A stretch of 33,991 nucleotides of DNA from Flavobacteriales bacterium (GTDB lineage: Bacteria > Bacteroidota > Bacteroidia > NS11-12g > UBA955): assembly GCA_040379725.1 (NCBI GenBank), contig JBEIKN010000001.1:1-33991 (forward strand). The letters run 5' to 3'. The notes beneath the pieces are model-generated. The model did no database searches and was not told the DNA's origin. It worked only from the letters and a program-made list of their open reading frames with translations. Positions 451-23,732 of the stretch are shown here, one piece after another. How positions within the stretch are numbered: the stretch's first letter is position 1; every line of letters starts with the position of its first letter. The translations under genes were made by a program, and so were the position numbers.

Positions 451-1539
451 ATGAAAAAACAACTAACTCTACTCTTGGTGCTTAGCATTTACTCAATGGC
501 TCAAGCACAAATGTTGAATGTGGTAAAGTTTAAAAAACTATTACACGATTTTGGAAGTATTAAAGAAGAAAGTGAACGCGTCAGCACAGTATTCAGTTTT
601 CAGAATATCAGTCAATCGCCGATTTATATTACCAAAGTTGAGACCAGTTGCGGTTGTACAACACCTGAATACAGTAAAGACACTATTATGCCGGGCGATA
701 CTGGCTACGTAAGAGCCATTTATGAAACCAGAGGCAGAGGCGGCGACTTTCATAAAAACCTGTTTGTCTATTTCAATCAAAAAGATTTGTTTCAAAGTTT
801 AATGATCTCTGGGCATGTCATTCCAGAAGCCAATTTGGCTCAAAAACCAAGTCATTTTTCGACTACCTACTCTAACTTAGCTTTTACTACTACTATGGCT
901 GAGTTTCCTAATCTCAAGAACACTCAAAAACAATCATTCAAAATGAAAGCCTATAACTACATGGGCTATCCAATTAGAATATACGAAATTCAAGCACCTG
1001 AGTTTTTAAGCATTGATGTTCAAGACAGTTTGATGGATGTCAATGATTCATTAACCATTACAGTCACTATTGATGGTGCTATGGTAGGTTCATTTGGCGA
1101 AATCAGACGCCGATTTGGTATTTTAACCGATGACCCAGCAGGCACTACCAAAATCTTACATGTTTTTGCCAATGTAAAAGAAGATTTTTCAAAGATGACT
1201 GCAAAAGATAAAAAGATGGCACCTGTGTTTGACATACAACCAACAGGTACCATTGATTTGGGTAAGCACAGTGCAGGCGAAAAATTTGATTATCCAGTGA
1301 CCCTCAGCAATAAGGGTAAAACCACTCTAAAGATCCATTCCATTGTTCCTAATTGCTCTTGTATTTCTGTTCAAAGGAACAGCATGGTCATTGAACCAGG
1401 TCAATCAGCAAGCCTAGTGTTAACCGTCGACACCGTCAATCAATCTATAGCCAATCATACCAAATACATTACCATACATTCAAACGATCCTAATAAATCT
1501 GAACACAAATTGAAAGTGATAGTGAACATAACCAACTAA
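451..1539 (+). CDS. Secreted protein with two DUF1573 domains
   Basis: The signal peptide [20 protein letters not shown] starts at the second ATG (451); the track start at 427 adds 8 residues ahead of it. The N-terminal module HDFGSIKEE...[27 protein letters not shown]...PGDTGYV...[12 protein letters not shown] fits the DUF1573 pattern (FDFG...N.G..PL.I..V..SCGCT.P). A second degenerate copy is at the C-terminus ([12 protein letters not shown]...[23 protein letters not shown]...PGQSASL...ITIHSNDPN). Confidence 0.8.
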
Positions 1540-15511: not shown

Positions 15512-16624
15512 ATGATTATTGGCGTACCAAAAGAGATTAAAAACAATGAGAACCGTGTTGCAGTAACTCCTGCAGGCGTAAGTGAATTTGTTAAGCACGG
15601 TCATACCGTGTATGTTCAAGCTACAGCCGGCGAAGGCAGTGGTTTTTCGAACGAAGAATATGTTGAAGCAGGTGCTACTCTATTGCCAAGCATAGAGGAA
15701 GTTTATGCCATTGCTGACATGATCGTTAAAGTAAAAGAGCCAATCGAAAGCGAATACAAATTGATTAAAAAAGACCAATTGTTGTTCACGTATTTTCACT
15801 TTGCCAGTCATCAACCTTTGACCAATGCCATGATTGAGAGCGGTGCAGTTTGTTTAGCCTATGAAACCGTTGAAAAGGCTGACCGTTCATTGCCATTATT
15901 GGTGCCAATGAGCGAGGTTGCTGGTAGAATGAGTGTTCAAGAAGGCGCAAAATATTTAGAGAAGCCATTGGGTGGAAGAGGTATTTTATTGGGTGGCGTT
16001 CCTGGTGTTAAGCCTGCTAACGTTGTCGTTTTAGGTGGCGGTATTGTGGGTACTCAAGCAGCTAAAATGGCTGCAGGTTTAGGCGCACAAGTAACCATTA
16101 TGGATATTTCAATTCCACGCTTACGCCAATTAGATGATATTATGCCAGCCAATGTACAAACCATGTACAGTAATACTTACAACATTAAAGAAGCCATTAA
16201 GCATGCTGACCTCGTGATTGGTGGTGTATTGATTCCAGGTGCCAAAGCACCACACTTGATCACCAAAGACATGTTAAAGCTCATGAAAAAAGGTGCTGTA
16301 TTGGTGGACGTTGCTGTTGACCAAGGTGGTTGTTTCGAAACCACAAAAGCCACAACTCATGCTGAGCCTACATACGTGATTGACAACATCATTCACTACT
16401 GTGTAGCCAACATGCCTGGCGCGGTGCCTTATACCTCTACATTGGCCTTAACCAATGCGACTTTGCCATATGCCATTCAGTTGGCCAACAAAGGTTGGAA
16501 AGACGCTTGTAAAAACAATGCTGAATTGCGTTTAGGTTTAAACGTTGTAAACGGTAAGGTGGTATACAAAGGTGTATCAGAAGCCTTCAACCTACCATAT
16601 ACTGCAGTCGAAGAGATTTTATAG
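15512..16624 (+). CDS. ald: Alanine dehydrogenase
   Basis: The N-terminus is MIIGVPKEIKNNENRVAVTPAGV, the NAD motif is VLGGGIVGTQAA, and VDVAVDQGGC and HYCVANMPGAVP are present. The length of 370 aa fits. Confidence 0.9.
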   Translation: MIIGVPKEIKNNENRVAVTPAGVSEFVKHGHTVYVQATAGEGSGFSNEEYVEAGATLLPSIEEVYAIADMIVKVKEPIESEYKLIKKDQLLFTYFHFASHQPLTNAMIESGAVCLAYETVEKADRSLPLLVPMSEVAGRMSVQEGAKYLEKPLGGRGILLGGVPGVKPANVVVLGGGIVGTQAAKMAAGLGAQVTIMDISIPRLRQLDDIMPANVQTMYSNTYNIKEAIKHADLVIGGVLIPGAKAPHLITKDMLKLMKKGAVLVDVAVDQGGCFETTKATTHAEPTYVIDNIIHYCVANMPGAVPYTSTLALTNATLPYAIQLANKGWKDACKNNAELRLGLNVVNGKVVYKGVSEAFNLPYTAVEEIL

Positions 16625-16652
16625 TAATACTTGGGTTTTTAACTTTTGATGT

Positions 16653-17003
16653 ATGGCTCACAATTTTAAAGAAATAGACGGAAATGTAATTTGCACTAAA
16701 TGTGCCAAGAGCACTGTTTGGGGAGATAATCCATGTAAAGGAAATCATAGTTTTAAGGATTTATCAGGAGAAATAATTTGCACTAAATGCGCCAAGAGCA
16801 CTGTTTGGGGAGAAAATTCGTGTAAAGGAAATCATAGTTTTAAGGATTTATCAGGAGAAATTAGATGTACAAAATGTGCCAAAAGTAAGGTTTGGGGCGA
16901 AAATTCGTGTAAAGGAACACATAGTTTTAAAATTTTGGCAGGATCTATAAAATGCAGTAAATGTGCCAAAAGTGAGGTTTGGGGAGAAAATAATTGCGGA
17001 TAA
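16653..17003 (+). CDS. Small Cys-rich protein made of four tandem 29-aa H-x10-C-x2-C-x10-C modules (putative tandem zinc-knuckle or zinc-ribbon protein); family unknown
   Basis: The 116-aa ORF starts 28 bp after the ald stop. It has 12 Cys and the four repeat His in strictly periodic positions (H3/C14/C17/C28, then +29 for each unit). Between repeats 2 and 3, 7 of 10 differing codons are synonymous, which argues for selection at the protein level. There is no signal peptide or TM segment. Confidence 0.6.
   Translation: MAHNFKEIDGNVICTKCAKSTVWGDNPCKGNHSFKDLSGEIICTKCAKSTVWGENSCKGNHSFKDLSGEIRCTKCAKSKVWGENSCKGTHSFKILAGSIKCSKCAKSEVWGENNCG
16659..17000 (+). repeat. Four in-frame tandem copies of an 87-bp unit (the last copy is 81 bp)
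   Basis: Units span 16659-16745, 16746-16832, 16833-16919 and 16920-17000. By my hand count, adjacent units differ at about 13-15 of 87 positions. There are long exact shared blocks, for example tgtaaaggaaatcatagttttaaggatttatcaggagaaat at both the unit 1/2 and unit 2/3 junctions. Confidence 0.9.
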
Positions 17004-17111
17004 TACACATTTTGCAAAAGCGGAGAAGTATCTGATTGGATAGCCTATTTGAATTTGAAACAATCCATCTTTTTTGAATAGCGCTAATGTTCTCTATCTT
17101 AAATCCCAGAG

Positions 17112-17133
17112 CAACATTGGATTAATGTTGTTT
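17112..17133 (+). terminator. Weak candidate intrinsic terminator after the Cys-repeat gene
   Basis: CAACATT-GGATT-AATGTTG forms a 7-bp AT-rich stem with a 5-nt loop, followed by TTT. It lies in the 172-bp convergent gap. The stem has low predicted stability. Confidence 0.3.
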
Positions 17134-17175
17134 ACCAGATTTTATTAGGATTTTTATGTCAAAATTGTGTCATAA

Positions 17176-17406
17176 TTAAATCAATTCACCCACCACATTG
17201 AATTTTAAAAACACTGAATCAGAATGGGGAGCATCTTTTAATTCTGCAGTAAGATCTTGACCGGCCCAATGCTCATAGTGCTTGCCATTTTTCCACAAAC
17301 GGCTATCGCTCACATCGTATATTTTCCCTTTAAAAGCTACCCAAATCTCTGGTTTGTCTTGACCATTTCGGAGGGCTAATTGTTGATGCGTGAATTTAGG
17401 CAGCAT
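17176..17406 (-). CDS. Soluble cytochrome b5-like heme/steroid-binding domain protein (76 aa)
   Basis: KIYDVSDSRLWKNGKHYEHWAGQDLTAELKDAPHSDSVF aligns by eye with the cytochrome b5 core VYDVT...EHPGGE...GHS. Both His positions that ligate heme in canonical b5 are present (EHWAG and APHS). There is no TM anchor. Confidence 0.7.
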   Translation of the reverse strand: MLPKFTHQQLALRNGQDKPEIWVAFKGKIYDVSDSRLWKNGKHYEHWAGQDLTAELKDAPHSDSVFLKFNVVGELI

Positions 17407-17453: not shown

Positions 17454-18593
17454 TTGAAAATTCGCGTTGTATTTATACTCATTTTAGTGTTTTTGTGCTC
17501 AGTGTTTGCCTGGTGGTTGTATGCGTTTATTCAATACACACAAAAGGAATACACACTGCAAAAAAACAATTTGCAGTTGCACACAATCTCCATTCAAGAT
17601 GAGTTGGTTCAATTTATAGAGGGCAAAGCTCAATCGATTGACAGCAATTTATATCAAACTTATAGTGCCCATCAATCTGAAGCCCAGGCATATTTGAATA
17701 CACTCAATGAAAAACATCAGGTATTAACCCATATAGAATTATTAGATACCTTATCTGGCAATCACCATTTTTTTAAAATCACATTAGAGGATTCAGCGCT
17801 TGAAGGCATACAAAAACAGTTTGACAAAAAACAAAGGGCCTTTTATTCCGAAGTGATTTTTTTAGCGCTTTTGATCATTGGTGGCGTTGTATGGGTGTTT
17901 CAAAGATTACAAGCCTTGCTGCGCTTGAATGCCATGCAGAATAATTTCTTATTGTCGGTAACGCACGAGCTTAAAACCCCATTAACAGCCATAAAACTCA
18001 GTGCACAAACGCTTCAGCGAAAAGATTTACCTATGGCGATTCAGTCAGAATTGAATCATCAAATACAGTCCAATGCAGACCGATTGAATGAATTGCTTGA
18101 CAACGTACTTGTTGCCTCAAGAATTGATGGTCAAGATTACAAATACAATTTTACTGAAATAGACATCACAGAGATCATTCAAAACGTTGCAGATTTGGTT
18201 TTTGATACAGCTAATTTTAAAGGACAATTTGAATTCAATGAAGCGTCTAAAATCATAAGAGCAGATGAAGTAGCCCTTAAAATGGTTTTCAGCAATTTGA
18301 TTCAGAATGCCATAAAGTATGCAGGAGACCAAGCAACTATTCGCATCAGTTATCAGTCTTATTCAAAAGGATTTGATGTTATTGTAGCAGACAACGGTCC
18401 TGGCATTGAAGAATCTGAACTCAAAGCGGTCTTTAAAAAGTTTTATAGAATCGGTAATGAGTCGGTCAGAAACAGCAAAGGCACAGGATTGGGTTTGTAT
18501 CTGGTTCAACAAATATTAAAATCACATCAAGCTAAAATAAGGGCAATAGCCAATACACCGAAAGGCACTCAATTCATCATCACATTTAAATAA
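17454..18593 (+). CDS. Sensor histidine kinase (two TM helices, about 115-aa extracytoplasmic loop, HisKA and HATPase_c domains)
   Basis: The H-box is SVTHELKTPLTAI, the N-box NLIQNAIKY, the G1 box DNGPGI, and the G2 box GTGLGL. TM helices lie at about aa 4-25 and 133-150. I see no HAMP domain. Confidence 0.85.
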   Translation: MKIRVVFILILVFLCSVFAWWLYAFIQYTQKEYTLQKNNLQLHTISIQDELVQFIEGKAQSIDSNLYQTYSAHQSEAQAYLNTLNEKHQVLTHIELLDTLSGNHHFFKITLEDSALEGIQKQFDKKQRAFYSEVIFLALLIIGGVVWVFQRLQALLRLNAMQNNFLLSVTHELKTPLTAIKLSAQTLQRKDLPMAIQSELNHQIQSNADRLNELLDNVLVASRIDGQDYKYNFTEIDITEIIQNVADLVFDTANFKGQFEFNEASKIIRADEVALKMVFSNLIQNAIKYAGDQATIRISYQSYSKGFDVIVADNGPGIEESELKAVFKKFYRIGNESVRNSKGTGLGLYLVQQILKSHQAKIRAIANTPKGTQFIITFK

Positions 18594-18600
18594 ACCAACT

Positions 18601-19293
18601 ATGAACCGTATACTATTGGTCGAAGACGAAAGCAGCTTGCACGATTTACTCAAGATGAATCTGGAGTTAGATGGCAATAAAGTTATTGGCGTTAAGGATG
18701 GCCCATCTGCCATTCAGAGATTCAATGACGAACAATTTGATTTGGTCATTTTGGATATTATGATTCCGGGCATTGATGGCTATAATGTTTGCGAAAGCAT
18801 TCGTCTAAAAAACCAATCGGTACCTATTTTATTTTTGTCGGCCAAAAACCGTGTTGAAGATAGAATTGCTGGACTTAAAAAAGGCGCTGATGATTATATC
18901 ACAAAGCCTTTTAATTTGGAAGAATTGCAATTGAGAATTAACATTCTTTTGAAACGAAGCGCAGCGCTTAATCAGGTGCATCATTCAGTCAAAGAATTTG
19001 AATTTGGCGGTAACTCTGTGAACTTTGAAAAACACGAAGCCAAAGGCATTAATGGCCATTTCAATTTGACTAAAAAAGAAGTCTTGTTATTGAAGTTGCT
19101 TGTAGAGCATAAAAATGAGGTGGTGAGTCGTGAAAAAATCCTTCAAACAGTATGGGGTTATTCGGTGTATCCTTCGACCAGAACCATTGACAACTTTATA
19201 TTGTCTTTTAGAAAATACTTTGAAAAAGACCCTAAAAATCCCAAGTATTTTTTAGCCATAAGAGGGGTTGGCTATATCTTTGAATGCCCATAG
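18601..19293 (+). CDS. OmpR/PhoB-family response regulator (DNA-binding)
   Basis: Receiver motifs are present: LLVEDE, the phospho-acceptor context DLVILDIMIPGIDG, and ITKPF. The C-terminal winged-helix region contains LTKKEVLLLKLL...VVSRE...VW and RGVGY. Confidence 0.9.
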   Translation: MNRILLVEDESSLHDLLKMNLELDGNKVIGVKDGPSAIQRFNDEQFDLVILDIMIPGIDGYNVCESIRLKNQSVPILFLSAKNRVEDRIAGLKKGADDYITKPFNLEELQLRINILLKRSAALNQVHHSVKEFEFGGNSVNFEKHEAKGINGHFNLTKKEVLLLKLLVEHKNEVVSREKILQTVWGYSVYPSTRTIDNFILSFRKYFEKDPKNPKYFLAIRGVGYIFECP

Positions 19294-19361
19294 GGCAATT
19301 GCTTTACTGTCAGTAATTTGTCATATTAAGTTCTGCTTAGTGTTGAATTGGTTTGAGCAAT

Positions 19362-19369
19362 TAATTTTG
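19362..19369 (+). promoter_or_regulatory. Candidate -7 box (TAATTTTG) ahead of the HmuY-like / TonB-dependent receptor genes
   Basis: Matches TAnnTTTG and ends 22 nt upstream of the ATG at 19392. Confidence 0.4.
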
Positions 19370-19391
19370 CGCCATCAATCAAACCAATATC

Positions 19392-20684
19392 ATGAAAAAA
19401 TCATTTATACTTTTGGCGTGTTTACTCGGCTTAGGCTCAGTTTATGCGCAATGTCCTGCCAACGACAGCGCCCTTATGGGTCCTGGTTCTCTTAACGATG
19501 TGTTTTACAGTTTTAAGAAAGCTGCTCAAACAGGCAATGGCGTTGTTTCAACTGTATCAAATACCAATTGGCATTTAGCCTTTTCAGTGATGCCAAGCAA
19601 TTTTCCGAACAATCCTGCTAATGGAGTAGCCATTAGAGTCAATTCTCCACTAGGCGAAAATTCACAAGCACAAACCACAGGTACTAGCTTGGTTAAATTG
19701 ATTGGCGCCAATGCCAGCAATTGGAGAAACATTGATACTACAGGTTTGTATGCCTTGCAACCCATTTATGATAATGACAGTACTTGGAATTTGAGTGCCT
19801 TTACAAGAGGGTATAAAACAGCTGATCCATTCAATTTTATTTGGGGCAGTTATAATCCAACTTCTCATAATGTAGAAGGCAATAGTTCTGTATATGTTCT
19901 ATACAATAAGAGTGCTAATTGGTATAAAAAAATTACCATCAAAGAAGTCACTTTAGATACCATGTGGAATTTTGTCATCTCTAACATTGATAACACAGAT
20001 TCTCAAAACATCATCTTTAACAAAAAAGCCTACCCTAAAAAACTATTTGTGTATTACAACGTGTTAACCCATGCAATATCAGACAGAGAGCCAAGCGTTG
20101 ACCAATGGGATCTTGTTTGGACTAAGTACAAAGGTATGGTATCAATGGGCCCAGGTCCTAAGGTTCCTTATACTGTAACCGGTGTGTTAAGCAATCCATT
20201 TACTAGAGTTGCCAGAAATACTGGCAAACGATGTGACCAAGTGTGGTTGGCCAACAAAACAGCTCAGCCTCAAGATAAAATCTCCTGCATAGGTCATGAT
20301 TGGAAATTCTTTAACGGCATGTCTTATGACATTATAGATACCTTGGTGTATTTTGTTTCGACACGTGATTCACATACTTATAAAATGACCATGAAATCAT
20401 TCAGAAGTGCTAAAACCACTTTCAATTTTTATGAGTCAACATTATCGGTTAATGCGCTTCAGTCAGAGTCAAACATTAGAGTATTCCCTAACCCAAGTAA
20501 TGGTTTGATTCAAATTGAATCTGCATCTGCTATTCAAATGGTTGAAGTCTTTAATGCCATGGGACAAAAGGTTTTGAGCAGCAATGCTTCTACAATTGAT
20601 TTACAAGCTCAAGCAACAGGTATATACCATTTAGCCATTTATACTGAAAAGGGCATGGTCATGGGTTCTGTTCTTAAAAACTAA
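19392..20684 (+). CDS. HmuY-like domain protein with a T9SS C-terminal sorting domain
   Basis: Has the signal peptide MKKSFILLACLLGLGSVYAQ. Its body is paralogous to the ORF at 22710-23732 (NWHLAF vs DWDIRF; WDLVWTKY...PYTVTGVLSN...AR vs WDFMFTRY...PYRVAGVLCN...AR; IGHDWKFF vs IGYDWKSH; YKMTMKSF vs FKLRFLDF). Those motifs resemble the HmuY family (WDLAF-type). The C-terminal 69 aa are a typical Por/T9SS tail. Confidence 0.7.
   Translation: MKKSFILLACLLGLGSVYAQCPANDSALMGPGSLNDVFYSFKKAAQTGNGVVSTVSNTNWHLAFSVMPSNFPNNPANGVAIRVNSPLGENSQAQTTGTSLVKLIGANASNWRNIDTTGLYALQPIYDNDSTWNLSAFTRGYKTADPFNFIWGSYNPTSHNVEGNSSVYVLYNKSANWYKKITIKEVTLDTMWNFVISNIDNTDSQNIIFNKKAYPKKLFVYYNVLTHAISDREPSVDQWDLVWTKYKGMVSMGPGPKVPYTVTGVLSNPFTRVARNTGKRCDQVWLANKTAQPQDKISCIGHDWKFFNGMSYDIIDTLVYFVSTRDSHTYKMTMKSFRSAKTTFNFYESTLSVNALQSESNIRVFPNPSNGLIQIESASAIQMVEVFNAMGQKVLSSNASTIDLQAQATGIYHLAIYTEKGMVMGSVLKN
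20475..20681 (+). other. T9SS (Por) C-terminal sorting domain coding segment
   Basis: IRVFPNPSNGLIQIESASAIQMVEVFNAMGQKVLSSNASTIDLQAQATGIYHLAIYTEKGMVMGSVLKN fits the T9SS type A CTD pattern (vyPNP..g...i......v.v.n..Gq.v.......idl..l..GiY.l.i). Confidence 0.75.
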
Positions 20685-20715
20685 TTTCAATTTTTTGTTC
20701 TTGACCCTGCGTCAT

Positions 20716-22713
20716 ATGATGAGTGTAATGGCAATATCCATAATGGGTATCGCCTTTGCGCAAACCGATGATACTACTGATATTCAACGTGCAGTAGTAG
20801 CTACAGGGAATATTATGCCCAGCAATGCCTCAAAAACGGTTCATAATGTCAAAATAATCACTGCAAAAACCATTGAAAAACAAGGGGTATTCAATTTAAA
20901 GGATCTTTTACTCAAAGAGAACACCATACGCATCAGCAATGATAATCTCTTGGGTGCCTCGATGAGCCTGCAAGGCATGAGTGGCCAAAACATCAAAATT
21001 TTATTGGATGGTGTGCCCATTACTGGTCGCGAAAATGGCAATATTGACTTGGGGCAGATGAATTTGAATAACATCGAAAGGATTGAAATCATTGAAGGCC
21101 CCTTATCGGTCATTTACGGCACTGATGCCTTGGGTGGTGTCATCAATATGGTGTCAAAGCGCATTGTATTAGACAGTACTAAACCTTATTCAGCATTTGC
21201 TAACGCCTATTCTGAAAGCATTCAACAAAACAATATTGGTGCTGGTGCTTTGGTCAAGTTACAAGGGCTCAATTTAGGGGCTAGTTTGAATAGAAATTTC
21301 TTTGGAGGCTATTCGCCCAATTCAAACAGCCGTGTGATGCTTTGGAAACCGAAAGAACAGGTGTTTGGACATTTTACTTTGTTGCAACAAAATGGCAAAC
21401 TCAAATTGAGGTTTAAATCCGATGTTTTCAATGAGAAAATAGAAAACAGAGGTGAACCCGTGATCAACCATTTGGAGGCTTATGCATACGATGAATACTA
21501 TTTAACCAATCGCAGCATGACTTCCTTGAACCTCGAAAAACAAATCAAGCCAAAAACCTATTGGCAGGTCTTAACGTCGTTTAATATTTACCAGCGCGAT
21601 AAAGTCACCTATTTGAAAGACCTCACACAGTTCAATAAAATGACTTTGGTGCAAAATCCTGATGCCAATAGTTCAACGTCTTTTTTGAATGGCATGAGCA
21701 GAGGCACCTATAACAATGCCAGCAAACAGTCATTTGCTTATCAGTTGGGATATGACATCAACCTGAACAATGCATTTGGTACTAAAATAGAGGCTGACAA
21801 AGGCAAAATGAATGATTATGCGTTTTTTGCTTGCGCGGAAATCCAATCCCTTAAACACTTTAACATCAAACCAGGTTTTAGAGCCAGTTTTAACACCAAG
21901 TATGCAGCGCCTTTTATCCCATCTATTCAAGTAAAATACGATGGCATCAAACATGTCAGCATACGTTATGCCTACGGAAGAGGTTTTAGAGCACCAAGTC
22001 TTAAAGAATTGTACTTGTATTTTGTGGATTACAACCACAATATATTAGGCAATCCAGATTTACAATCGGAGTTATCCAATAACCACAGCGCGGCATTCAA
22101 GTACCGTTTCAAAATCAAGCAATGGCAATTGACTTTAGACAATACCTATTTTTACAACAGCATCTTTAATCAAATTGCATTGGTCAGATTGAATTCTAGC
22201 AATTTGGAATACACTTATCAGAACATTGACCGGTTTAAATCTTTAGGCAGCAATTTGCAGTTAAACTTTCAAAAGCGCCGCTTTAGTGGCAATATGGGGG
22301 CCGCCTACACAGGCATCTATAACAATGCATTTGAACTCTTCAATAAACAGCAATATTTGTATTCTCCAGAGCTAAGAACCCAATTGTTTTATCAACTTAA
22401 ATCCAAGCGATTTTATGATCAAACCACCGTGTCTGTTTTTTATAAATATGTTGGCAAAACAGCAGGCTATGCTTTGGACAATTTAAGACAAGTGGTAAAC
22501 ACTTATACGCAGGCTTATAGCATGCTTGACATTACCCTTAACAAAGCCTTTATGCACAATAAACTCCATTTGACTATGGGTGCTAAAAACCTGTTCAATG
22601 TTAGCACCATTAGGGCTGTTAACGTATCGAGTAGTTTTCACAACGCCGGAAGCAACAGCATGCCAGTGTCAATAGGACGTTCAGTATTCATTCAATGTGC
22701 CTACAAACTATGA
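20716..22713 (+). CDS. TonB-dependent outer-membrane receptor (HmuR-like in size and context)
   Basis: The signal peptide MMSVMAISIMGIAFAQ starts at the ATG at 20716; the track uses a TTG at 20695. Plug-domain motifs are present (NVKIITAKTIEKQG, IEIIEGPLSVIYGTDALGGVINMV), followed by a long beta-barrel with alternating hydrophobic residues. The last strand is GRSVFIQCAYKL. Confidence 0.85.
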   Translation: MMSVMAISIMGIAFAQTDDTTDIQRAVVATGNIMPSNASKTVHNVKIITAKTIEKQGVFNLKDLLLKENTIRISNDNLLGASMSLQGMSGQNIKILLDGVPITGRENGNIDLGQMNLNNIERIEIIEGPLSVIYGTDALGGVINMVSKRIVLDSTKPYSAFANAYSESIQQNNIGAGALVKLQGLNLGASLNRNFFGGYSPNSNSRVMLWKPKEQVFGHFTLLQQNGKLKLRFKSDVFNEKIENRGEPVINHLEAYAYDEYYLTNRSMTSLNLEKQIKPKTYWQVLTSFNIYQRDKVTYLKDLTQFNKMTLVQNPDANSSTSFLNGMSRGTYNNASKQSFAYQLGYDINLNNAFGTKIEADKGKMNDYAFFACAEIQSLKHFNIKPGFRASFNTKYAAPFIPSIQVKYDGIKHVSIRYAYGRGFRAPSLKELYLYFVDYNHNILGNPDLQSELSNNHSAAFKYRFKIKQWQLTLDNTYFYNSIFNQIALVRLNSSNLEYTYQNIDRFKSLGSNLQLNFQKRRFSGNMGAAYTGIYNNAFELFNKQQYLYSPELRTQLFYQLKSKRFYDQTTVSVFYKYVGKTAGYALDNLRQVVNTYTQAYSMLDITLNKAFMHNKLHLTMGAKNLFNVSTIRAVNVSSSFHNAGSNSMPVSIGRSVFIQCAYKL

Positions 22714-23732
22714 GCAAACCAATAAGTGCTATACCGTTGTTTTTGACGCTTGCTTTAACAGCCTGTTTTAAGCAAGAAGACCCAATTGTTTTGCCTCAAG
22801 GCAATAGTCAAATTAGTACTTGTTTTATAGGTACCGATTACGAGAACAATGTGTATTTTGATTTGGGAACGAATACTTATCAGATCCATCCTTCAGATGA
22901 TTGGGACATCCGTTTTGAAAGCGATGATACAGCATGGGGCATGTTCATCAATACGGGTAACAACATCAAATTGTATAAAACCGATTTGTATGCGCTTAAT
23001 GACCCGCGTTCTGATGATACCAATTACATCAAATCATTCAAACCATTAATAGATGCCCCAGAGGGCAATCCTTTTACGTCTGCATCAGCTAATTGGCGTT
23101 TATTTAAACGCCGGGGTATTGCAGATTCATTGGGTGTGTATGTTATTGATTTAAGTTATGAAAGTGGTTCAAGTCAATACAAGAAAGTTCAAATTCTAAA
23201 TGTCACACATGCCGCCTACCGCTTTGTGATAGCCGATCTTTACAGTACCCAATCAGATACCATTATCTTATTAAAGGACAAATCCAGTAACTACAGTTAT
23301 TTCTCCTTCAGAAATGGCGGTCAAATAGTACAATCTGTTGAACCCAATCAAGCACACTGGGACTTTATGTTTACCCGTTACAACCATAATTTTATGGGCA
23401 TTTTGCCTAATAATGAACCATTTCCGTATAGGGTTGCTGGAGTTTTATGTAATCGCAATGGGGTTTTAGTTGCTAGAGATTCTACAACTGGATTTGACGC
23501 CATCAATGCCGGAATGATTCGCCAATTGCAGTTTTCTGATCGAGCAAATGCCATTGGATACGATTGGAAATCACATGCTTTTGCTGCTGCTGGCAATTAT
23601 GTTGTGAATCAAAAAATAACTTACATTATTAAGGATACCGATGGTCAATTTTTCAAATTAAGGTTTTTGGATTTTTACAATGCTAAAGCTGAAAAAGGCT
23701 ATCCCAAATTTGAATTTATTCGCATTCAATAG
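22710..23732 (+). CDS. HmuY-like lipoprotein
   Basis: The start at 22710 gives an ATGA overlap with the receptor stop. The lipobox is LALTAC. The protein is a paralog of the product of 19392-20684 (motifs listed there) but has no T9SS tail. Confidence 0.7.
   Translation: MSKPISAIPLFLTLALTACFKQEDPIVLPQGNSQISTCFIGTDYENNVYFDLGTNTYQIHPSDDWDIRFESDDTAWGMFINTGNNIKLYKTDLYALNDPRSDDTNYIKSFKPLIDAPEGNPFTSASANWRLFKRRGIADSLGVYVIDLSYESGSSQYKKVQILNVTHAAYRFVIADLYSTQSDTIILLKDKSSNYSYFSFRNGGQIVQSVEPNQAHWDFMFTRYNHNFMGILPNNEPFPYRVAGVLCNRNGVLVARDSTTGFDAINAGMIRQLQFSDRANAIGYDWKSHAFAAAGNYVVNQKITYIIKDTDGQFFKLRFLDFYNAKAEKGYPKFEFIRIQ

Follow-up and report, generated by a model that had tools for sequence, protein, structure and literature searches.

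The closest described counterparts of the gene reported here are the zinc-ribbon and rubredoxin-type domains and the haloarchaeal C(P)XCG micro-proteins. Zinc-ribbon and rubredoxin knuckles (as in 1qyp, eL37, eL40, eL43 and Nop10) consist of a beta-hairpin ending in C-x-x-C-G with a distal Cys about 10 residues further on, and the domains that carry them are small, basic and usually associated with nucleic acids; classical zinc ribbons combine two C-x2-C/H knuckles, each formed by a hairpin of its own, to provide four ligands in a tetrahedral arrangement around one zinc. The haloarchaeal C(P)XCG micro-proteins, among them HVO_0758, HVO_2753 and Brz, are very small, hold only predicted C-x-x-C-G-type zinc motifs and use a motif pair per zinc. 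Some of them have more than one site (PMC11241148, PMC10716476, PMC6562870, PMC2253796), and one-domain zinc-finger micro-proteins of haloarchaea affect stress adaptation, biofilm formation and swarming (PMC6562870, PMC10716476, PMC11241148). Here we describe a 116-residue mini-protein from the Flavobacteriales bacterium assembly GCA_040379725.1 (GTDB lineage Bacteroidota; Bacteroidia; NS11-12g; UBA955), encoded on contig JBEIKN010000001.1 within a stretch of 33,991 nucleotides (positions 1 to 33,991, forward strand) that is referred to below as the window. The mini-protein is a string of four modules, each with one His and three Cys in constant order (HCCC).

The HCCC modules share with zinc-ribbon and rubredoxin knuckles the predicted hairpin, the Cys pair at its end and the distal Cys, in a protein that is likewise small and basic. 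They depart from classical zinc ribbons in having one knuckle per unit, flanked by an isolated His (10 residues to the N-terminal side) and an isolated Cys (about 10 residues to the C-terminal side), and from zinc-ribbon domains more widely in being strung head to tail, four to six at a time, with nothing else in the protein. The very small size and the exclusive content of predicted zinc motifs recall the C(P)XCG micro-proteins, whereas each HCCC unit bears a single C-x-K-C-[A/G] within a periodic array, and no sequence homology between the two groups was detected. Several micro-proteins whose zinc fingers were predicted from motifs bind no zinc (PMC11241148), and motif-based metal inference for HCCC units therefore calls for caution. 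Consecutive small hairpin zinc modules acting as binding scaffolds are also found in LIM and tandem zinc-finger arrays (CRP2, LMO2), which gave weak Foldseek and profile matches; LIM domains, however, differ in ligand spacing and order and are eukaryotic, and template modelling scores (TM-scores) of about 0.15 indicate no real structural match. Metallothioneins, with Cys-dense C-x-C/C-C clusters, scant regular secondary structure and few aromatic residues, are unlike the mini-protein, in which Cys makes up 10% of residues, each unit has Trp or Phe together with Gly, and hairpins are predicted. A c-type haem motif was considered and rejected, there being no C-x2-C-H in the mini-protein. By prediction, we describe it as a zinc-ribbon-like small protein with an unusual ligand set, arranged in pure tandem arrays.

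A rare family of tandem HCCC proteins

Translation of the mini-gene gave four 29-aa units, each H-x10-C-x2-C-x10-C, at the positions given in Table 1 and with nothing else encoded, as the original prediction had read from the letters alone. An in-frame TGA lies 6 nt 5' of the ATG, and Met-Ala-His is therefore the true N-terminus; at the other end the final Cys stands one residue from the C-terminus. The protein contains 12 Cys and four His, and its charge (18 K+R against 11 D+E; isoelectric point (pI) 8.8) and lack of any hydrophobic stretch bear out the earlier description of a Lys-rich protein with neither a transmembrane segment nor a signal peptide. Tandem Repeats Finder reported positions 16687..16991 as 3.5 copies of an 87-nt period with 85% matches. 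This periodicity within one gene arises from simple tandem duplication, and the evidence that the motif exceeds chance is instead the invariance of H/C/C/C among relatives.

Such relatives exist, and the HCCC tandem-module proteins constitute a real family, rare and unnamed. An exhaustive search of 1.84 billion representative proteins returned 13 matches, 11 of them true family members of 84-345 aa, whilst the remaining two (P0006 and P0009) were rejected as low-complexity artefacts. The DNA pattern M-A-H-x-[FY]-K-x7-C-x-[KR]-C-[GA], run on JGI metagenomes, produced three matches, all of them true members (3/3). About 15 distinct relatives were found in all, among billions of public proteins and contigs, and derived from Bacteroidota-like contigs, an archaeal contig (GatD/E, DUF555), Ca. 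Hatepunaea meridiana and other sources. Their 90% clusters held one to five members each, and every source name was "hypothetical protein". A word-indexed search of 5.8 billion proteins found nothing with the single mini-protein and only two known members with the family alignment, and a genome-contig scan with the mini-protein gave no match. On viral contigs, a generic two-unit H/C DNA pattern returned 50 matches, all attributable to chance (most contained stop codons and the few open frames were unrelated), and the N-terminal signature pattern returned none; tblastn against phage and plasmid collections was also negative.

When 41 units from 12 proteins were aligned, H1, C12, C15 and C26 were the only invariant columns, with Gly frequent at position 8, Lys at 14 and Gly or Ala at 16. 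The spacings of the His to the first Cys (x10-12) and within the C-x2-C are fixed, and the distal Cys follows the knuckle after x8-16. Between the last Cys of one unit and the His of the following one lie 3 to 7 residues, a variable segment that is therefore read as an inter-module linker, which favours one self-contained HCCC site per unit; the linker-like variation of the same spacer disfavours, without formally excluding, the alternative grouping of ligands as C-x2-C...C-x3-H across adjacent units. The family can accordingly be defined by at least two tandem units of H-x(10-12)-C-x2-C-x(8-16)-C with invariant H/C/C/C, usually with nothing else in the protein, and the window protein has four such units. 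Many members begin M-x-H and stop no more than three residues past the last Cys, and the window protein and its close relatives have a pI of 8.8 to 9.4.

Variation in repeat number, which the original prediction had suggested looking for among homologues, was indeed found: relatives carry 2, 3, 4 or 6 units. One and the same gene has three units in L150 (7017..7274) and two in L152 (1140..1298), an in-frame gain or loss between strains. A second, tandem HCCC paralogue is present in L150 (85 aa, uncalled by annotation) and L156 (112 aa). In L169-L171 an 87-aa copy is unannotated (L169 2331..2594), hidden under a 46-aa open reading frame (ORF) with a GTG start that was called in the wrong frame (Table 1). 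Such miscalled frames suggest that the family is under-counted in protein databases. A separate peculiarity was seen in L157 (88..351) and L172 (196..459), where every unit has an extra conserved G-H-H before the distal Cys (S-L-G-H-H-x-C); these residues could be additional or alternative metal ligands.

Purifying selection and unit duplication

The mini-gene is a real coding gene under purifying selection. Modules 2 and 3, 85% identical at the DNA level, differ by seven synonymous and three non-synonymous codons; the original prediction had taken this mostly synonymous divergence as a mark of selection on the peptide, and a Nei-Gojobori omega (the ratio of non-synonymous to synonymous rates, dN/dS) of 0.075 agrees with that view. 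The closest relative found, on contig L158, is an 87-aa protein of three units that has the same residue as the window protein at 70-71 of 87 aligned positions (~80%). Between these two genes synonymous sites are saturated (proportion of synonymous differences, pS, 0.81), with a non-synonymous proportion (pN) of 0.12. The orthologues of L157 and L172 are identical at 79 of 87 residues and show 19 synonymous and 10 non-synonymous differences (omega 0.115). On these dN/dS values the reading of the mini-gene as a non-coding tandem repeat was rejected. The exact mini-protein was also called on eight independent ENA metagenome contigs, all of the same species and with identical gene order, and the strain-level contigs L083-L088 (98.7-99.6% DNA identity overall) carry zero substitutions within the mini-gene ORF, a result that says little because divergence is locally too low.

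The first and last units of the L158 protein correspond to units 1 and 4 of the window protein, module 4 agreeing with the L158 last unit at 25 of 27 residues, and the single middle unit of L158 corresponds to units 2 and 3. The middle unit was therefore duplicated in the window lineage, after which purifying selection maintained both copies.

Predicted fold and search of known families

No model in Pfam, NCBIfam, PHROG or PADLOC claims the mini-protein or ten relatives, and the earlier statement that it belongs to no named family thus stands, PDB sequences and Foldseek likewise yielding nothing significant. The best zinc-ribbon Pfam models (e.g. Zn_ribbon_5, Zn_Ribbon_TF, DZR_2) scored the mini-protein at 19.6-22.8 bits against cutoffs of 28.6-29.3, and the ten relatives similarly fell under the zinc-ribbon cutoffs. 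One model, EGF_Sp38_C (PF20626), which describes a 50-position EGF-like domain from a eukaryotic extracellular protein, exceeded its cutoff (30.5 bits against 24), but as the sum of four partial matches, the best of which covered profile positions 32-49 of 50; it was read as an artefact of Cys spacing in the repeats and rejected, and 0/10 scanned relatives match it at E up to 0.01. A PDB sequence search with the whole mini-protein found nothing, whilst the unit profile gave marginal matches only (E 0.01-1), to the TFIIS/RPB9 zinc ribbon, rubredoxins, eL37, eL40, eL43, eS27, Nop10 and LIM domains, in each case by way of the x-x-C-x-K-C-G knuckle. The resemblance to zinc-ribbon ligand grammar pointed out in the original prediction is supported to this extent.

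Given the 12-sequence alignment, AlphaFold produced a model with a mean predicted local distance difference test (pLDDT) score of 82 and a predicted template modelling score (pTM) of 0.72, with one beta-hairpin per unit and no metal modelled; in module 1 the strands lie at residues 5-8 and 11-14. From the single sequence the model was poor (pLDDT 59). Foldseek searches of PDB and BFVD found nothing similar (best E 0.3, TM-score ~0.2).

Recurrent pairing with a uracil-DNA glycosylase-like gene

The recurring neighbour of HCCC genes among close relatives belongs to the uracil-DNA glycosylase (UDG) superfamily. On six contigs from three lineages (L157, L158 and L169-L172), a gene of 227-239 aa lies directly downstream of the HCCC gene on the same strand, at a distance of 7 nt in L157 and L169-L172 and of about 36 nt, or overlapping, in L158, depending on the start codon. 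The L157 partner passes the Pfam UDG model PF03167 at 30.6 bits (cutoff 24.3) and carries both superfamily motifs, motif A (G-x-x-P) and motif B (H-P); the P0022 partner protein likewise passes PF03167. Among 164 homologues of the partner, many have PF03167 or are named uracil-DNA glycosylase. The partner family is characterized by GLEPR and HP motifs, with G84, E86, P87, R88, H218 and P219 invariant in 29 sequences. It resembles family-4 UDG in its motif-A-like G-L-E-P-R and motif-B-like H-P but is very divergent, the profile reaching the family-4 enzyme TM0511 in PDB only weakly (E 0.07). The pairing occurs on two branches of the enzyme family that are only 38% identical. No viral relatives of the UDG-like family were found. 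To our knowledge, no described UDG has a dedicated zinc-array partner gene, and a literature search likewise found none.

The recurrent tight placement upstream of the UDG-like gene leads us to propose binding of DNA or of the enzyme, with targeting or control of the glycosylase. Our preferred reading, held tentatively and with somewhat less than even confidence, is that zinc stabilises each of the four modules of the mini-protein, that the basic string they form binds DNA or a protein, and that it ancestrally worked with a UDG-like enzyme. The narrower claim within this reading, that the units serve as structural metal modules in tandem, we hold to be considerably more probable than the whole. 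Each 29-aa module would form a beta-hairpin ending in the C-x-K-C knuckle and most likely bind one Zn2+ through His1, Cys12, Cys15 and Cys26; it would be zinc-ribbon-like, with the His before the hairpin and the single distal Cys standing in for the second knuckle. The protein as a whole would be a small, basic, cytoplasmic string of autonomous mini-domains, and the arrays would evolve as entire units are gained or lost, as in the window copy, which acquired its fourth unit from the duplication of the middle one. The family would represent a rare accessory gene with a patchy distribution that takes in Bacteroidota together with a few further bacteria and archaea. In close relatives the HCCC gene, directly upstream of the divergent UDG-superfamily enzyme and probably co-expressed with it, would encode an array that binds DNA or the enzyme and so targets or controls it; in the present genome the partner is not adjacent, and ald would be a neighbour by accident of position.

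Several observations weigh against this reading. A UDG-like coding sequence is absent from the whole 34-kb window by tblastn. In L159 the 229-aa gene 10 nt downstream resembles the UDG-like family only through a WFGD...VGLNPSD motif (hhalign E 0.0025, probability 12%). Distant family members adjoin ExbB/ExbD, a GNAT acetyltransferase, an aldehyde dehydrogenase, BspA-type LRR_5 proteins, and TerB-like and small unknown genes. Two close homologues that share 71-72% identity with the enzyme of L158 stand behind unrelated small genes, of 76 aa (P0023) and 62 aa (P0026), and the gene upstream of P0036 encodes a Fib_succ_major protein of 285 aa; the UDG-like enzyme therefore does not need the HCCC protein. 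Finally, each Zn(Cys)3(His) site is net negative, which lowers the effective positive charge of the array.

The place of the HCCC gene before the UDG-like enzyme is also occupied, in L160 (1162..1350) and L173 (860..1090), by 62-aa and 76-aa genes without the Cys motif, and the upstream partner of the enzyme looks exchangeable. This exchangeability is the starting point of a different explanation, in which the mini-protein, instead of steering the UDG-like enzyme to DNA, regulates or inhibits it or serves it as an immunity-type partner, within a two-gene conflict (defence or counter-defence) or toxin-antidote cassette with an interchangeable small upstream gene. We consider it unlikely, though the swapping of that gene between close UDG-like relatives (HCCC array, 62-aa, 76-aa or 285-aa protein) is what it would lead one to expect, as are the patchy distribution of the family, the strain-to-strain change in unit number (three in L150, two in L152), the tandem paralogues, and the location of HCCC genes in regions rich in small unknown ORFs, TerB-like and BspA-type LRR genes. 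Neither gene, however, has a PADLOC match, no relatives occur in the phage and plasmid collections or on viral contigs, and the window copy has been kept under selection without an adjacent partner. Known UDG inhibitors, moreover, are acidic DNA mimics, whereas the mini-protein is basic.

It is likewise doubtful that the mini-protein is a stand-alone regulatory zinc-finger micro-protein binding nucleic acid or protein, in the manner of the haloarchaeal C(P)XCG proteins, to which the UDG-like neighbour would be incidental. The small, basic, modules-only architecture suits that role, for which the haloarchaeal one-domain zinc fingers offer precedents (PMC6562870, PMC10716476, PMC11241148), and no UDG-like gene adjoins the window copy or several distant relatives; the recurrence of the tight gene pair across enzymes only 38% identical, on the other hand, is not easily ascribed to chance.

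Genomic context of the window copy

The mini-gene follows the alanine dehydrogenase gene ald by 28 nt, and pntAB lies upstream of ald in divergent orientation (Table 1). As originally described, the short gap contains no obvious terminator or promoter: consensus scans found no terminator-like hairpin in the spacer, the only sigma-70-type match overlapping the scanned region (16702..16730) is weak and begins inside the mini-gene ORF, and the spacer folds no better than its shuffles. Given the 28-nt gap and the missing terminator, co-transcription of the mini-gene with ald in this genome is possible. The functional tie to ald, pntAB and NAD(P)H that the original prediction drew from this arrangement was not supported by comparison. 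Neither the mini-gene nor its synteny with pnt, cytochrome-b5 and histidine kinase genes was found in any of 80 ald-anchored loci from other Bacteroidota, including that of a Flavobacteriaceae metagenome-assembled genome whose Ald is 91% identical, and L158 has 275 nt of non-coding DNA upstream in place of ald. On the contigs of relatives of any degree, neither ald nor pnt was found beside the HCCC gene, so that conservation of the ald linkage, which had been put forward as a check, failed, and the UDG-superfamily gene is the neighbour that recurs. The adjacency of ald and the mini-gene is an incidental accident of position, the link being absent elsewhere.

The original proposal of a thiol or metal buffer or redox sensor thereby loses its sole contextual support, since the ald/pnt link is not conserved. 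In its wider form, this explanation casts the mini-protein as a buffer of metal or thiols, a store of zinc or a redox switch for ald/pntAB, or as a zinc-releasing, redox-regulated protein like Hsp33 or Ruc, and we judge it distinctly improbable. It draws on the twelve Cys and four His in 116 aa, on the 28-nt, terminator-free gap to ald and on the precedent of redox-regulated zinc-ribbon chaperones such as Ruc (PMC7448276). Against these stand the restriction of the ald/pnt adjacency to this species and the want of any consistent redox or NAD(P) enzyme neighbour among relatives; the regular hairpins, conserved Gly and aromatic positions and roughly 10% Cys also have the look of structural zinc sites rather than of metallothionein-type clusters.

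Downstream, the spacer that separates the mini-gene from the convergent cytochrome-b5-like gene contains only a weak AT-rich hairpin (17109..17133, z -1.1), and DNA similarity between the window and L158 fades about 22 nt past the mini-gene stop. Rfam returned nothing relevant around the locus. In strain contig L087, 81 nt of unalignable sequence (1350..1430) replace the 112-nt intergenic segment 17039..17150 of the window, between flanking genes that are ~99% identical. Further along, positions 17454..23732 (+) encode a histidine kinase, an OmpR-type response regulator, a Por_Secre_tail protein (type IX secretion system, T9SS), a TonB-dependent receptor and an HmuY-family haem-binding protein, a cluster that looks like a regulated haem-uptake locus.

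Table 1. Coordinates of the mini-gene, its modules, adjacent features of the window and the miscalled reading frame in three relatives
Feature	Coordinates (nt)	Strand	Residues (aa)	Description	Source
Mini-protein gene	16653..17003	+		116 codons plus stop; Met-Ala then four HCCC modules	ORF list, translation
Module 1	16659..16745	+	3-31	H3, C14, C17, C28	
Module 2	16746..16832	+	32-60	H32, C43, C46, C57; half of middle-unit duplication	
Module 3	16833..16919	+	61-89	H61, C72, C75, C86; other half of duplication	
Module 4	16920..17000	+	90-116	H90, C101, C104, C115	
Alanine dehydrogenase gene (ald)	15512..16624	+		Pfam AlaDh_PNT_N, AlaDh_PNT_C; upstream neighbour only, not part of the feature	
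Spacer, ald stop to mini-gene ATG	16625..16652	+		28 nt	
Non-coding spacer	17004..17175	.		Between mini-gene and convergent cytochrome-b5-like gene	
Cytochrome-b5-like haem/steroid-binding domain protein	17176..17406	-		Stand-alone, 76 aa; convergent with mini-gene	
Miscalled 46-aa ORF	L169 2458..2598, L170 1073..1213, L171 917..1057				Public gene call

Surroundings of distant relatives

The largest relative, P0004 (L081 6804..9038, L082 4636..6870), is 345 aa long, begins with a signal or membrane anchor and contains six HCCC units; its gene immediately follows ExbB and ExbD, in the slot expected for a TonB-like gene. Beside the 265-aa member P0011, L145 (3043..7914) holds a cluster resembling those of ribosomally synthesized and post-translationally modified peptides (RiPPs), comprising two 47-aa peptides, a 494-aa unknown, a radical S-adenosylmethionine (SAM) enzyme, a 92-aa protein and an LRR_5 protein. 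A conserved array in L150 (4620..7826) and L156 (182..1722) contains two Lys-rich, histone-H1-like peptides (54 and 61 aa), a TerB-like 137-aa protein, duplicated 104-aa unknowns and a 113-aa unknown, and also the pair of tandem HCCC paralogues, after which comes a BspA-type LRR_5 protein. A link to TerB was considered, a TerB-like gene lying near the L141, L150 and L156 relatives, and was rejected on its varying distance and marginal scores.

It is very improbable that the mini-protein serves as the precursor of a ribosomally synthesized peptide or as a secreted peptide rich in disulfides. In favour are its richness in Cys and its repetitive sequence, the radical-SAM gene and 47-aa peptides near P0011, and the signal or anchor of P0004. 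Against it are the lack of a leader or signal peptide in the mini-protein and of any modifying enzyme, protease or exporter in the neighbourhood of the window gene or its close relatives, the fit of the invariant His and knuckle grammar with metal binding, and the presence in the L145 radical-SAM cluster of its own 47-aa precursors.

Implications

Bacterial small proteins that consist of zinc modules alone are poorly covered by existing catalogues, and the HCCC family is without a representative in Pfam, NCBIfam or PDB. Gene callers sometimes miss its genes or choose the wrong frame for them, as in L150 and L169-L171. The family is genuinely uncatalogued and rare, whilst its metal binding and function are what we infer from prediction. 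Its modules have an unusual ligand set (a His, one C-x2-C knuckle and one distal Cys) and are strictly modular, with a unit number that shifts between strains. For the organism studied here, a misleading guilt-by-association link to alanine dehydrogenase and transhydrogenase has been removed.

A bolder extension of the preferred reading, speculative and on present evidence unlikely, is that the HCCC array and the divergent UDG-like enzyme constitute an undescribed two-gene module, in which the array recognises DNA, perhaps modified or damaged, and directs or gates a specialised glycosylase. Environmental Bacteroidota could use such a module for repair or against phages, and in this genome the array gene would have been retained alone. 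The recurrent pairing of HCCC genes with a very divergent UDG-superfamily gene provides a concrete hypothesis for both orphan families.

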